Shown piece by piece: positions 3,575 to 22,813 of a DNA stretch of 25,456 bases (its first letter is position 1; each line of letters opens with the position of its first letter). The notes below the pieces were generated by a model, which had not been told where the DNA came from, made no database searches, and saw nothing but the letters and a program-made list of their open reading frames with translations. Source of the stretch: a virus; UHGV virus genome UHGV-0039951, one strand, 5' to 3'. The position numbers and the translations under genes were made by a program.

Positions 3575-4303
3575 TTACGCCACATTTGAGCCATGTAGCA
3601 GGTGTTGTAGTGCTTTAACGCCTTCAGAATTGTAACGGAACGCCTCTACCTGTTTGCTGGAATGCGCCGATTTATCTAGGAAGAACTTCCCGTACTGCTC
3701 AGTTTTGAGGTTGTTTGCGTTAGCAATGCGACCAATCTTGTTGGCCGTTACTCCAAGCTGCTCTGCAACCTCCCCTGCTGAGTAGTAATGCTCTTCTATT
3801 GCCGGAAGAGGTATTGCATTAAAACCAACGAGCGGGTTGATTATACTTGCTGCCGCTGTCTGCTTTGCCTCAGGCGCAAGATTTGGCATCAGATCGAACA
3901 GATTGGTAACAGCTTCAACCGTCATTTTCAATGTTCTCGCTTGACGATACTCAACAAGTCCACTCGCTGATTTACCGCTTTTAATGTGCGCTTCTTGCAT
4001 ACTTTCAAGTTGGTCTACCAGTGAGCGGCGAACGGCTTTTGACTCGCGAGCGGCAACTCGCAATGCTTGCTTGATTGACATCTCAATGATAACCATCGAA
4101 GTTTTGTTCGCTTTTTGCACTACACTTTTTGTGTAGTGCTCTCCATCCAATTCATCTTCAATTTTCTCGATGAATTTGTTATTACGAACCTCCGGCTCAC
4201 CGCACTGTCTACGAGCCTGATTTACCATCTCAAGCAGGCGCTGGCTGTCAATGGTTTTATCCGTGACAACGGATCCGATGTTTGCTACATTCTTAAAAGT
4301 CAT
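3575..4303 (-). CDS. Antirepressor-like protein (AntA-like N-terminus, KilAC-like C-terminal motif), 243 aa
   Basis: ORF 3575..4354 trimmed to the ATG at 4303 (MTFKNVANIG...), which is preceded by AAGGAA at 7-nt spacing. The C-terminal motif YYSAGEVAEQLGVTANKIGRIANANNLKTEQYGKFF resembles KilAC domains. Family assignment from recalled motifs only. Confidence 0.5.
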   Translation of the reverse strand: MTFKNVANIGSVVTDKTIDSQRLLEMVNQARRQCGEPEVRNNKFIEKIEDELDGEHYTKSVVQKANKTSMVIIEMSIKQALRVAARESKAVRRSLVDQLESMQEAHIKSGKSASGLVEYRQARTLKMTVEAVTNLFDLMPNLAPEAKQTAAASIINPLVGFNAIPLPAIEEHYYSAGEVAEQLGVTANKIGRIANANNLKTEQYGKFFLDKSAHSSKQVEAFRYNSEGVKALQHLLHGSNVA

Positions 4304-4371
4304 TAGGCATTCCTTATGTGGTAGTAAGGGTGTGACATAGGCCGCCAGCAGCACACTGGCGGTTTTCTTTT
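4298..4371 (+). ncRNA. Putative Sar-like antisense RNA covering the RBS and start codon of the downstream antirepressor gene
   Basis: Candidate promoter GTGACA (4263-4268), 17-nt spacer, TACATT (4286-4291), then about 74 nt to the plus-strand terminator. The transcript would be complementary to the ATG at 4303 and SD at 4311-4316. Analogy to P22 sar RNA; inference only. Confidence 0.25.
4342..4371 (+). terminator. Plus-strand intrinsic terminator antisense to the antirepressor operon
   Basis: Perfect 7-bp stem CCGCCAG / CTGGCGG with 7-nt loop, followed by TTTTCTTTTT on the plus strand. On the minus strand the hairpin is followed by no U-tract, so it is orientation-specific. Confidence 0.55.
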
Positions 4372-4391
4372 TGCGCCGTCCGGCGCACCAA

Positions 4392-5030
4392 TCAATGAAT
4401 CCATTCCTCGCCGCGCAGTTTTGCCAGCATTGGCTGAGCGTTCTTTACGACAAAATTGTTGGTATCAAGATTCTTCATTTCACGAAGAAGTGATTTCTTG
4501 GTTTCTTCTGACATGTAGCGAGTCTCATATGCAATATCGTAAATCCTTCCAGAAAGCTCAGAACCAATTTGCTTCATTCCTGGGTAGATGTGTTTGCACA
4601 TTTGTTGACTCTTCTCCATCCACAATTGTAAGTAGCAGAGATTAACCAGCTCTTCGTCAGTAAACTGTTTTGCAATCGGTGAGCATTCTGCCTGCCGATC
4701 CAAAATATCCAGCACCCAGCGGCGGAACTCTTTAGCCTTGGGCGTAGAAGCAAACATCGCCACCAAGTGAGCGCCTCGGAGCGAGTAAACTCTGACCGAT
4801 TTGTTACGTAAGCTATTGTTTATCCCGTTGACCTTCATATTGAGGGTCAATGACATTGAGTCGGAAAACTCGTCAGCATTACGGGCATAAATTTGGCTGA
4901 TGGCATCAGTTTTTTTATAGCCGAGAGCCTTAGCTAGTTCGGTGGAGGTAAACCAGATAGACCCACCCTCTGTTACAGGGTTAAAGGTGAATCCTTGGAA
5001 GTTATAATCTGATTTTGCTATAATGTTCAT
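4392..5030 (-). CDS. ant: Antirepressor with BRO-N-type N-terminal domain (Ant-like), 212 aa from ATG 5030; ORF could extend to 5114
   Basis: The motif YNFQGFTFNPVTEGGSIWFTSTELAKALGY is typical of BRO-N/antirepressor N-termini. ATG at 5030 is preceded by AAGGAA. An alternative start at 5114 also has an SD and would overlap the arc-like stop. Confidence 0.6.
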   Translation of the reverse strand: MNIIAKSDYNFQGFTFNPVTEGGSIWFTSTELAKALGYKKTDAISQIYARNADEFSDSMSLTLNMKVNGINNSLRNKSVRVYSLRGAHLVAMFASTPKAKEFRRWVLDILDRQAECSPIAKQFTDEELVNLCYLQLWMEKSQQMCKHIYPGMKQIGSELSGRIYDIAYETRYMSEETKKSLLREMKNLDTNNFVVKNAQPMLAKLRGEEWIH

Positions 5031-19795: not shown

Positions 19796-20329
19796 ATGAG
19801 TTTAGAAAAATTACTAATCAAAAACAGAAAGTGCGGTTCATGCTCTGTGTGCTGCACTTCGCTACGAATTGAACAGCCAACGTTAAAAAAGTTGGCTGAC
19901 ATCCCATGCCAGCACCTTAAACATCAGGGAGGATGTGCAATTTATGATGAACGCCCTTCTGTTTGCCGCACTTGGTATTGCGGATGGCGAATTCTGGATA
20001 TAGGACCAGAGATGCGTCCTGATCGGAGTGGAGTTCTAATCCGTTATGATGGATCATCACTCTGCTTTCAACCCGTAGACAAAAACCGCGTATCTGCTTT
20101 GATCGAACCAGAGCCTCTGCGAATTTTGGGTGGCCTGATAGATCAAGGTATGAAAGTGGAAATATCGGTTCCAACAAAGGAAGGGTATTGCTCAGCCAAT
20201 ATTAATGTCACTGAGCATATGTCAGAGGTTGTAAAAAGCAGAGAGTATGTAAAAATGCGTTCGGCTCTTTTGGCGCTCATTCAATTCGCATCACGAGCAA
20301 AGACAGATCCAGTAGAACCGCTGGAATGA
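19796..20329 (+). CDS. Cysteine-cluster protein (YkgJ-like CxxCxxCC domain) with ~100-aa C-terminal extension; accessory gene on the opposite strand
   Basis: The ORF-track start at 19751 is TTG. The first ATG at 19796 is preceded by GGGAGA. Motifs CGSCSVCC ... CQHL ... GGCAIYDERPSVCRTWYCGW fit the YkgJ Zn/Fe-binding family as recalled. AT-rich composition. Confidence 0.7.
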   Translation: MSLEKLLIKNRKCGSCSVCCTSLRIEQPTLKKLADIPCQHLKHQGGCAIYDERPSVCRTWYCGWRILDIGPEMRPDRSGVLIRYDGSSLCFQPVDKNRVSALIEPEPLRILGGLIDQGMKVEISVPTKEGYCSANINVTEHMSEVVKSREYVKMRSALLALIQFASRAKTDPVEPLE

Positions 20330-20337
20330 TTATTCAG

Positions 20338-20361
20338 GTCGGGTTTAACACCCGGCTTTTT
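20338..20361 (+). terminator. Weak intrinsic terminator after the Cys-cluster gene
   Basis: 5-bp stem CGGGT/ACCCG with loop TTAAC, followed by GCTTTTT. Confidence 0.35.
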
Positions 20362-20604
20362 GAAATGGTACTCATTGCATCGCTTAATTTTCTTTAAATG
20401 AGAAACGTCCTCTTTCTTAACTGAAGACATTAATTCTTTATCAGTTCGAACATTCATTTTTTTCCATTGCATGATCTTCGCTAATTTATAATTTGCAGTT
20501 CTCCTGCAACGATTTGTTATGTGATAGGATATCTCTCTTCGTTTGGCGGTCCATTACTTCAATATCGTGATCATTAAGGTATAGGCTTTGTAATGCCTAC
20601 ATGG

Positions 20605-21084
20605 TTAAATGATTTGCCAGTCTTCAGCCATCAGGTCGCCAATGGATGGAGCCCATGTAGCAAGGCGGTTCTGTGAGTTTTTCAATACAAGCGTGTCATT
20701 GAAAGTTGGCTCGCCAACATATTCGCCAAAGCCATAACCCAACGCAGACGCTAATTTTTCTCCTTTCACGAGATAAACAAACTGATCTTTCCCATTCCAT
20801 CCTGCCCGCTGCAAACTTTTGCCCTGTTTTAACGCTTCCATGGCAAGGCCGAAACTTAGCCCTGATACCGGACGATAAGCCTTTTCGAATACTTCTTTTG
20901 GACTCCAGCTAACGTAGCCATCAAAGCGATCGGTGTTAGGTTTTCCGCCATCCAGATATTCAACCAGATAGCCTTCGTCCTCGCCGTTTTCTCCGGCAGG
21001 AAGCTGCCAGCCACGAAAATCGTTATATGCCTGTCTCGTCATCGGAAAGGCGTTAATCAGTTTTACGCCAATATGCTGGGTCAT
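20605..21084 (-). CDS. DUF2829-like (Tad2-like fold?) accessory protein with N-terminal extension, 160 aa
   Basis: ATG at 21084 (MTQHIGVKL...). The first 41 codons of ORF 20605..21207 look non-coding. The C-terminal half (FGLAMEALKQGKSLQRAGWNGKDQFVYL ... WAPSIGDLMAEDWQII) matches the DUF2829 pattern as I recall it. Confidence 0.55.
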   Translation of the reverse strand: MTQHIGVKLINAFPMTRQAYNDFRGWQLPAGENGEDEGYLVEYLDGGKPNTDRFDGYVSWSPKEVFEKAYRPVSGLSFGLAMEALKQGKSLQRAGWNGKDQFVYLVKGEKLASALGYGFGEYVGEPTFNDTLVLKNSQNRLATWAPSIGDLMAEDWQII

Positions 21085-21106
21085 AAAATTACCTATGGAG
21101 TTGGGA

Positions 21107-21131
21107 ATAAAAAAACCCCGCGAATGCGAGG
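21107..21131 (-). terminator. Intrinsic terminator downstream of Rz
   Basis: Minus strand reads CCTCGC-ATTC-GCGGGG (6-bp stem with one G-U pair) followed by TTTTTTT. Confidence 0.55.
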
Positions 21132-21306
21132 CTAAATCCTGGTGTTTGTGATGACTGGCTCTTATCTCAACGCAGCCCCTTACCGCGCGCCAGATGCTCA
21201 ATATCAAGCATCAGCAATGAGATGTTTAATCTGGATTCACTCCAGAAGTGATCACCACCCTGTCTACAGAGCCAGATGTGAAGGATGATGAGTAAAATTA
21301 TCGTTA

Positions 21307-21744
21307 TCATCGAAGGCATTGCGCCCTGATGTACTCCTGCAGGTAGTTAACCTGCGCGGTTATTCTGTCGATTCCACTTCGTAGACGGTAATAATTGAGT
21401 TTAGCATCTGCTGTAAGTCTTGGGCTTTCTCCATCGCCCATGCTGCTGGCTCCGGTCGTTGACTTTGCACAGGTGGCAGCGACTTGCAGGCGCTTACGAC
21501 CAGCAGAAATATCAGCACGGAGACTTTCGATAGTCGCGTTAGCATCAGCAAGCTCCTTTGTATATCTGGCATCGAGTTCTGCTACATCACGTTGACGCTT
21601 CTGCATATCAGCGATTGTGGATGTGGCCTTATCGCGCTGCTCTTTGTAGGTAATGGCGTTATCACGGTAATGATTAACAGCCCATGACAGACAGACGATG
21701 ATGCAGATAACCAGAGCGGAGATAATCGCGGTTAACCTGCTCAT
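21307..21744 (-). CDS. Rz: Rz i-spanin
   Basis: ATG at 21744 overlaps the endolysin stop (ATGA). N-terminal TM segment ([20 protein letters not shown]) followed by a coiled-coil-like periplasmic domain; contains an embedded +1 lipoprotein ORF. Confidence 0.85.
21360..21545 (-). CDS. Rz1: Rz1 o-spanin lipoprotein, embedded in Rz in the +1 frame
   Basis: [20 protein letters not shown]: signal peptide with lipobox VSAC, then a Pro-rich mature region ([16 protein letters not shown]). Entirely inside Rz. Confidence 0.8.
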
Positions 21745-22711: not shown

Positions 22712-22748
22712 TAAAACGCAAAAAGCCCCGAGCTATTAACTCAGGGCT
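22712..22748 (-). terminator. tR'-like intrinsic terminator of the short PR' transcript
   Basis: Minus strand reads AGCCCTGAG-TTAATAG-CTCGGGGCT (9-bp stem, one G-U pair) followed by TTTTTGCGTTTT. It lies about 30 nt downstream of the predicted PR' start site. Confidence 0.6.
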
Positions 22749-22769
22749 TTATTTAACGAGTGCATTTAT

Positions 22770-22813
22770 CCATCGTTGAGTCAAATTTACCCAACTTTAT
22801 TCAATAAGTCAAT
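22770..22813 (-). promoter_or_regulatory. Late promoter PR' with qut-like region (-35 TTGACT 22812..22807, -10 TAAATT 22789..22784, AACGAT pause element downstream)
   Basis: TTGACT, 17-nt spacer, TAAATT, then TGACTCAACGATGG immediately downstream of Q. The same hexamers and pause element as lambda PR', as I recall it. Confidence 0.6.

Follow-up and report, generated by a model that had tools for sequence, protein, structure and literature searches.

Phage-encoded sponges are a main viral route by which nucleotide-based immunity (Thoeris, Pycsar and the cyclic-oligonucleotide-based antiphage signaling system, CBASS) is silenced. The founding Thoeris anti-defense 2 sponge, SPO1 Tad2 (Gp34.65; PDB 8SME/8SMF/8SMG/8WJE), is a single domain of 89 amino acids (aa) with the published Tad2 fold, i.e., an N-terminal helix and then an antiparallel sheet of five strands, whose β2-β3 and β4-β5 loops contain helices. 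Four of the five Tad2 homologues tested inhibited Thoeris (Yirmiya et al.), and approximately 1% of short Tad2s are predicted to be incapable of binding the Thoeris signal 1''-3' glycocyclic ADP-ribose (gcADPR) (Li et al.). The PF13876 proteins form the Acb4 family of 3'3'-cyclic GMP-AMP (3'3'-cGAMP) sponges (Chang et al.), and PF21825, named Sequestin, is a sponge for 3' cyclic ADP-ribose (3'cADPR) that came to light because no other Pfam family is found fused to Tad2 and Acb4 as frequently (Tal et al. 2025). A new addition, RyR-Tad, is gp68 of Pectobacterium phage vB_PatP_CB1 (Fedorova et al. 2026, bioRxiv 10.64898/2026.06.04.730250). In this work we analyzed a stretch of 25,456 nucleotides (nt), virus genome UHGV-0039951 (hereafter the window), in which a minus-strand gene at 20605..21084 encodes a Tad2-like domain preceded by a further domain of 74 residues (N-domain). 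The features of the gene are as follows.

20605..21084, minus strand: coding sequence of the two-domain protein, 159 aa plus stop; RefSeq WP_001525210.1, 'DUF2829 domain-containing protein'
20863..21084, minus strand: N-domain, residues 1-74; small beta-barrel; phrog_9467 and phrog_32732
20608..20862, minus strand: Tad2-like domain, residues 75-159; matches PF11195, SPO1 Tad2 and ModTad2
20794..20799, minus strand: codons W96-N97, equivalent to SPO1 Tad2 W25-N26 (stacking and phosphate contacts to gcADPR)
20686..20766, minus strand: variable Tad2 insert, residues 107-132, KGEKLASALGYGFGEYVGEPTFNDTL; short, SPO1-like
20635..20655, minus strand: codons W144-A-P-S147-I-G149-D150, equivalent to SPO1 W73..S76..T78-D79

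The open reading frame (ORF) list and the sequence place the ATG at 21084 and the TAA stop at 20605-20607, giving 159 codons. A longer TTG-initiated ORF extending to 21207 in the mechanical listing crosses a terminator-like hairpin and is not used by RefSeq, which annotates a 100% identical 159-aa product in E. coli prophages. A sequence-only reading of this region had proposed an ORF for a DUF2829-like protein, and both the ORF and the C-terminal strings that it quoted are present in the sequence; its length of 160 aa was one residue too long, its unplaced N-terminal domain of about 80 aa corresponds to 74 residues, and its span to 21131 holds the gene but, beyond 21084, only non-coding sequence, namely the 5' leader and the greater part of the hairpin. 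We consider it likely that the gene encodes a two-module phage counter-defense protein, in which a Tad2 module would sequester gcADPR and a conserved N-module would dimerize and may bind a ligand or partner of its own. The Tad2 half is an additional member of a family already annotated in RefSeq and Pfam, now in a temperate coliphage, and by itself adds little; the novelty lies in residues 1-74 and in the combination of the N-domain with Tad2.

Tad2 domain and its predicted ligand pocket

Judged by sequence, residues 75-159 are a genuine Tad2/DUF2829 domain. Pfam PF11195 ('Tad2-like') covers residues 77-159 over profile positions 2-73 of 73 (E 1.4e-21; 77.2 bits, the curated cut-off being 25 bits), and in a phmmer search of all PDB chains SPO1 Tad2 (8SME, 8WJE) aligned without gaps over residues 75-159 at approximately 50% identity (E about 1e-25), followed by ModTad2 (9eib, E 1.6e-18) and the 8v3e Tad2 (E 1.9e-18). 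SptTad2, HgmTad2 and AcrIIA7 aligned only via the N-terminal helix and the GWNG loop, HgmTad2 and AcrIIA7 at E 1e-5. The DUF2829/Tad2 assignment that the sequence-only reading had made is thus borne out, and the Pfam scan it had proposed as a check is positive. The comparison of an AlphaFold model with Tad2 structures, which it had also suggested, is favorable at the level of element order: the AlphaFold2 (AF2) model of the whole protein (predicted local distance difference test, pLDDT, 86.6) has the order alpha1-beta-beta-alpha2-beta-beta-alpha3-beta of the published Tad2 topology (α1 78-86, β 91-93, β 102-106, α2 108-115, β 131-135, β 141-143, α3 148-152, β 156-158). At 159 aa the protein exceeds the usual single-domain Tad2 of about 90 aa by the extra domain, a difference of architecture that is no bar to Pfam membership. 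A match of the Tad2 half to phrog_643, labeled 'transcriptional regulator' (E 2e-5), was set aside as an annotation artefact of the DUF2829 family.

Besides aligning end to end with residues 75-159, SPO1 Tad2 shares with the prophage protein the secondary-structure order and a short GxGFGEY..EP.F insert. It differs in that 74 residues are placed ahead of helix alpha1 in the prophage protein, and in origin, SPO1 being a lytic Bacillus myovirus and the present element a temperate P22-like coliphage. The ligand contacts of SPO1 Tad2 have been described (Yirmiya et al.): W25, W73, N26 and D79 contact 1''-3' gcADPR directly, and S76, T78, I63, T65, D67 and H71 make water-mediated or adenine-side contacts. 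When these positions were transferred via the phmmer alignment and their invariance was judged over 34 homologues, W25, N26, W73, D79 and S76 were found to be kept as W96, N97, W144, D150 and S147, respectively, each invariant in the 34 homologues. I63 is conservatively replaced by L134; the adenine-contacting T78 is changed to G149, T65 to N136, D67 to Q138 and H71 to A142. The core of the pocket therefore appears intact, with the adenine side altered in a pattern common to the subclade of the query. The insert, which reads LASALGYGFGEYVGEPTF, bears on a second specificity: in HgmTad2 the β2-β3 segment forms a second pocket for cyclic dinucleotides (Li et al.), and in SPO1 Tad2 this pocket is occluded by stacking of F44, with which L115 aligns, and no cyclic dinucleotides are bound. 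Given the short SPO1-like insert, a gcADPR-type sponge without a cyclic-dinucleotide site would be expected. By analogy, the Tad2 half is most likely a sponge for a Thoeris signal, with gcADPR as the most probable ligand.

The same residues raise the alternative that the Tad2 domain has been adapted to another signal in place of gcADPR (His-ADP-ribose (His-ADPR) of type II Thoeris, N7-cyclic ADP-ribose (N7-cADPR) of type IV, or cyclic UMP (cUMP) of Pycsar) or acts as an AcrIIA7-type anti-CRISPR, which we regard as unlikely. The replacements of T78, T65, D67 and H71 follow a pattern that is coherent for a subclade (PS.GD, LKN.QN), there are Tad2 clades of different specificity, the homologue in phages Huey and Louie is labeled 'anti-CRISPR protein', and AcrIIA7 is itself a DUF2829 protein. 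That shared domain is the sole link between the prophage protein and AcrIIA7, however, and E. coli is not known to have a type II-A CRISPR. The direct gcADPR contacts are kept, and by the phmmer scores above the protein is far nearer to SPO1 Tad2 than to ModTad2 or to HgmTad2 and AcrIIA7; moreover, anti-Cas9 activity of AcrIIA7/HgmTad2 or other Tad2s was not reproduced (Li et al.).

Conservation, fold and fusion partners of the N-domain

The N-domain is a separate, well-folded domain whose conservation exceeds that of the Tad2 half. Modeled alone by AF2 (pLDDT 94.4) it forms a small beta-barrel that includes two helices and two conserved long loops, i.e., β1 2-5, β2 9-16, α1 17-24, a long acidic loop 25-36, β3 37-43, a loop 44-57, β4 58-62 and α2 63-69, so that the extra N-terminal module suspected in the sequence-only reading is confirmed as a domain of its own. 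Its signature is G6 K8 .. PM.R..YN..RGW..P..E...D.GYLVEY.DGG..N.....GY.SWSP...F...Y, and among the 149 best representatives approximately 30 positions are conserved to at least 90% (G6, K8, A12, M15, R17, Y20, N21, R24, W26, P29, E32, D36 and G38, together with L40-Y43, D45-G47, N50, G56, Y57, S59-P62, F66 and Y70). In the N-Tad2 family the mean pairwise identity is 0.67 for the N-domain, 0.55 for the Tad2 domain and 0.43 for the Tad2 insert.

No match to the N-domain was found in Pfam, NCBIfam or PADLOC, and the PHROGs that it matched are of unknown function only. Foldseek against PDB structures gave nothing significant, and its profile searched against PDB sequences gave nothing beyond a chance hit (E 1.6). 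Descent as a diverged duplicate of Tad2 was rejected (hhalign probability 0.2%), the Acb4 and Sequestin profiles aligned with hhalign probabilities of 5% and 0.2%, and the domain is set apart from Lockin, Acb5 and TadIV-1 by the distributions of those families, not by direct sequence comparison. In fold alone it resembles DUF1653 (PDB 3BE3) and the Tudor-like RNA-polymerase-interacting domains (the RNA-polymerase-interacting domain (RID) of Mfd, CarD, and the C-terminus of UvrD/PcrA), with weak scores, 4-19% identity and no sequence relationship. This resemblance, together with the existence of protein-binding Tads, is what speaks for the view that the N-domain binds a protein, be it a host defense enzyme (a TIR (Toll/interleukin-1 receptor) protein, a cGAS/DncV-like nucleotidyltransferase (CD-NTase) or an effector), a sponge-sensing guard of the Panoptes type, or RNA polymerase, and would thereby complement the sponge or deliver it; we judge this improbable.

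Sponge homologues bearing an extra 'PDB 6E3C' domain, the oligonucleotide/oligosaccharide-binding (OB) fold of phage L Dec, were left out of the sponge screen of Hadary et al. 2025. When the N-domain was compared with phage L Dec and 18 homologues, the hhalign probability was 0.2-0.3%. A two-segment motif likeness seen by eye (GGYLFRS...LYMSKTAFEANY in Dec and EGYLVEY...SWSPKEVFEKAY in the N-domain) is reached by 4% of shuffles and is not significant. The dec gene of phage L (552-956 of the phage L stretch examined) sits in the slot between Rz and terS, as does the two-domain gene.

When the 74 residues were searched with HMMER against 1.84 billion cluster representatives, 1,566 proteins were detected at E<=1e-3 and 838 at E<=1e-10, in which the N-domain is N-terminal, in the middle or C-terminal in proteins of 72-370 aa. 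The partners were counted by a Pfam scan of the 150 best N-domain proteins and the architectures by an iterative hidden Markov model (HMM) census of 149 representatives, the main classes being listed here.

Partners (150 best)
Tad2-like: 52
PF21825 crAss001_48 (Sequestin): 38
PF13876 Phage_gp49_66 (Acb4): 22
WDGH, DUF7307, AP2 and HNH: 1 each

Architectures (149 representatives)
N-Tad2: 46
N plus one unknown C-terminal region (N-?): 24
N-Sequestin: 19
N alone: 10
Acb4-N-Sequestin: 7
N-Acb4: 5
Acb4-N: 3
N-RyR: 1

Approximately 70% of the 149 representatives are joined to at least one known module, further architectures carry an unknown region on either side of the N-domain, and uncharacterized partners account for about a quarter of the architectures. 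The N-domain thus recurs before, behind or between sponges of four unrelated families, Tad2, Acb4, Sequestin and RyR-Tad. In metagenomic phage contigs an 80-aa N gene lies directly upstream of a separate Tad2 gene, which would be a split version of the N-Tad2 pair, and several of the remaining 'stand-alone' representatives seem to be N-Tad2 genes that have been frameshifted or split. The N-domain could not have appeared in the Pfam-based fusion query that found Sequestin, as it lacks a Pfam entry. Among unannotated partners it is the commonest, both for three sponge families established by experiment and for the new RyR-Tad, and it exceeds them in conservation; it has been mentioned in passing by one 2026 preprint.

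By tblastn the N-domain is present in 137 of 50,697 phage records. Its carriers include model phages: coliphage N4 (gp49, N-Tad2), prototypical crAssphage (gp41) and Clostridium phage CP51 (both N-Acb4), a Vibrio phage (N-Sequestin) and P22-like phages. N4 gp49 and the DUF2829 proteins of enterobacterial prophages (phrog_872, which the full-length 159-aa protein matches at E 1.7e-68) have the N-Tad2 architecture in common with the prophage protein, at 43-99% identity. The N4 gene lies in an anti-signaling hotspot, adjoining the Acb4 gene gp48 and the virion RNA polymerase (vRNAP) gene. The alleles of this group diverge sharply in the Tad2 insert; we found no published functional test of any of them. 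Fusions with several small anti-signaling modules per polypeptide are likewise known as Acb4-Tad2 (Pasteurella phage Pm86), Tad2-Sequestin and Acb4-Sequestin (Tal et al. 2025; Ab09 gp59), in which both modules have shown ligands, whereas in the prophage protein a ligand is assigned to the Tad2 half only, by analogy. Many Acb4-...-Sequestin proteins have the N-domain inside them (Acb4-N-Sequestin).

Two fusions may be recorded separately. Gene 2 of Pseudomonas phage Arace01 (2165-2926 of the stretch examined) encodes Acb4 at residues 17-90, an N-domain at about 113-179 and Sequestin at 191-248, and no middle domain is mentioned where 'Acb4-Sequestin' fusions of Pseudomonas N4-like phages have been described in the literature. 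Three partners of the unknown type were searched against the PDB; two gave nothing, and the third gave one MazG-like match (E 4e-5). In this protein (P0149, 230 aa) the N-domain is C-terminal to a region resembling MazG-like nucleoside triphosphate (NTP) pyrophosphohydrolases (PDB 3NL9), another nucleotide-directed partner.

Possible roles of the N-domain

The closest described case is RyR-Tad, in which a homologous N-domain also precedes a gcADPR sponge domain, the latter being an all-helical ryanodine receptor (RyR) repeat and not Tad2. In BLASTP the first 63 residues of gp68 align with residues 1-67 (34% identity over 67 aa, E 7e-6) and share the motifs K..A.PMT, EGYLV.Y and SWSP..VF, and a RyR-domain protein of Yersinia phage TG1 was obtained as an independent structural match to the N-domain (Foldseek in BFVD, E 2e-4, template modeling (TM) score 0.76). 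The N-domain of gp68 is divergent, without R17, N21, R24, W26 and the DGG.PN loop. In the crystal it swaps strand β1 between two protomers, giving a five-stranded sheet, and contributes to dimerization (Fedorova et al. 2026).

On this basis the two modules could work as follows. By analogy with SPO1 Tad2, the Tad2 module would assemble through helix alpha1 into a homotetramer, whose inter-protomer pockets (W96/N97 of both chains, W144, S147 and D150) would sequester the TIR-made Thoeris signal 1''-3' gcADPR (3'cADPR), and ThsA would never be activated. Since its homologue in RyR-Tad is a strand-swapped dimer, the N-module would be expected to dimerize and so hold the Tad2 units together; its conservation and its occasional occurrence as a separate ORF suggest that it would also have a binding function of its own.

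Several points weigh against this proposal. At four second-shell or adenine-side positions (G149, N136, Q138 and A142) the protein differs from SPO1 Tad2, which leaves room for another ADPR-derived signal as the favored ligand; in some Tad2 clades His-ADPR, N7-cADPR or cUMP is bound, in place of gcADPR or in addition to it. Fusion of the N-domain to the tetramerization helix alpha1 might alter assembly. From its sequence the N-domain has an acidic net charge, whereas sponges typically have positively charged pockets. The N-domain of gp68 alone (gp68_N) was without activity against type I Thoeris (Fedorova et al. 2026), and the domain may accordingly be purely structural. Finally, late expression, as proposed for this gene below, is unusual for a sponge.

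The inactivity of gp68_N and the strand swap are the arguments for the N-domain as solely a dimerization or scaffold module, raising the oligomeric order, stability or avidity of the attached sponge. This is the only option for the N-domain with experimental support, which comes from a divergent copy alone, and it agrees with the occurrence of the domain beside sponges of different ligand specificity. Tad2, Acb4 and Sequestin oligomerize unaided, however; a mere scaffold is not expected to exceed a ligand-binding domain in conservation, nor would one expect so many of its exposed polar and aromatic residues to be invariant over a range that runs from Clostridium phages to crAssphage. We hold a purely structural role to be somewhat unlikely.

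The conservation speaks for the N-domain itself binding a different immune signal, the protein being then a dual-specificity sponge fusion. The near-invariant positions (about 30 of 74) include K8, R17, R24, Y20, W26, Y43, Y57, W60 and Y70, typical of nucleotide pockets, and the fusions of the domain behave like those of known sponges in that the order varies, two or three modules are joined, and split versions occur, with one fusion to the MazG-like region described above. The same guilt-by-fusion logic led to Sequestin, and Acb4-Tad2, Tad2-Sequestin and Acb4-Sequestin fusions have already been shown to block two systems. Sponges are expected to be short, to form homo-oligomers whose protomer interfaces hold a pocket of 200-700 A2 with positive charge, and to be fused to known sponges (Tal et al. 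2025); the N-domain fits in its shortness and its fusions, while its net charge is acidic. It resembles no solved nucleotide-binding fold, and gp68_N was inactive against type I Thoeris, although it is divergent and this is the only result reported. With these points on either side, a ligand pocket in the N-domain is possible but doubtful.

Returning to the two-module proposal, we suggest tentatively, at rather less than an even chance, that residues 1-74 define a new and widespread family that is either a further sponge, its ligand still to be discovered, or a companion on which sponges universally depend, e.g., in higher-order cages or in evasion of Panoptes. Should the N-domain prove to have its own ligand or target, this would reveal a new immune signal or add a layer to the arms race, and if it is a scaffold, the construction of modular sponges would be explained. 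Either way the N-domain is usable as a search handle for new anti-defense domains, and were the new-family reading true, its uncharacterized partners would constitute a candidate list of such domains.

Gene context, expression and the Rz-terS slot

The two-domain gene belongs to a P22-like (Lederbergvirus) prophage, judged from its neighbors, which are, in order on the minus strand, Q, holin, endolysin, Rz/Rz1, the two-domain gene, TerS, TerL, portal, scaffold and P22-type coat. It was found in 45 of 5,426 complete E. coli genomes, chromosomal in every case, and Escherichia phage HZ41 carries a copy with 98.5% DNA identity over the matched stretch and 99.4% protein identity. The features that bear on its expression are as follows.

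22812-22784, minus strand: pR'-like promoter TTGACT-17-TAAATT, sigma-70-like, between Q and the holin gene
22750-22722, minus strand: strong tR'-like hairpin, 13 bp, between Q and the holin gene
21167..21319, minus strand: conserved 50-aa ORF between Rz and the terminator; phrog_11822, E 1.9e-37
21107..21133, minus strand: terminator-like hairpin (AGCCUCGC-AUUC-GCGGGGUU) followed by U7; 8-bp stem, 4-nt loop

The site at 22722..22812 is the presumed pR'/tR' from which the two-domain gene would be read, and all genes from there to the portal gene are on the minus strand, with the exception of one antisense YkgJ-family gene. The U-tract of the hairpin at 21133-21107 lies only 22 nt ahead of the ATG, a gap in which no promoter-like site was detected; the simplest inference is therefore that Q-modified polymerase would read through the hairpin, the gene being made late, just before the structural proteins. 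We conclude that the gene is probably expressed from the Q-antiterminated late transcript. The sequence-only reading had arrived at the same mode of expression, and the position of the gene in a Q-dependent late operon downstream of a terminator fits it; it had rightly placed a terminator upstream of the gene, but this terminator does not directly follow Rz, the 50-aa ORF intervening. Several signaling defense systems are triggered by late structural proteins (tail fibers, capsid vertex protein), and a sponge translated just before them would, speculatively, be timely. The 50-aa ORF overlaps the end of Rz, is annotated in RefSeq, Kapi1 and Huey, and has a hydrophobic N-terminus, a predicted signal peptide in the Kapi1 record. 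Unlike in phage Kapi1, no tRNA genes are annotated in the Q-holin interval of the window (annotation only; no ARAGORN scan).

The slot between Rz and terS is a variable cargo space in P22-like phages. In phage Huey it holds an N-Tad2 gene and an Acb4-family (PF13876) gene (382-762 of the Huey stretch examined), and in N4 the PF13876 Acb4-family gene gp48 (2609-2980 of the N4 stretch examined) stands beside N-Tad2; the Rz-terS slot therefore behaves like the anti-signaling hotspot of N4-like phages, and is indicated as a site of anti-signaling cargo parallel to it. Also counted with this cargo is gene 66 of phage Sf6, from which PF13876 takes its name. In the Huey record both the N-Tad2 and the Acb4-family gene are labeled 'anti-CRISPR protein', which is probably wrong. 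Between the two-domain gene and terS in the window there is a moron, an antisense YkgJ-family cysteine-cluster gene (19796-20329, plus strand; PF03692 CxxCxxCC, E 7e-4; phrog_9155), which converges with an unannotated 63-aa ORF (20281-20472, minus strand) for which Pfam, PHROGs and PADLOC yielded no homologue.

Within the slot the two-domain gene itself varies. The protein of phage Kapi1 (Kapi1_043; 4022-4543 of the Kapi1 stretch examined) is identical through residue 81 and then has a different Tad2 body, the divergence corresponding to 20608-20820 (minus strand) of the window, in which a 40-residue Cys-containing insert replaces the SPO1-like insert of 26 residues. Other alleles, including those of Klebsiella and Raoultella, carry unrelated inserts of 21-40 residues. 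This mosaic pattern suggests that the second-pocket region may be exchanged between otherwise near-identical genes.

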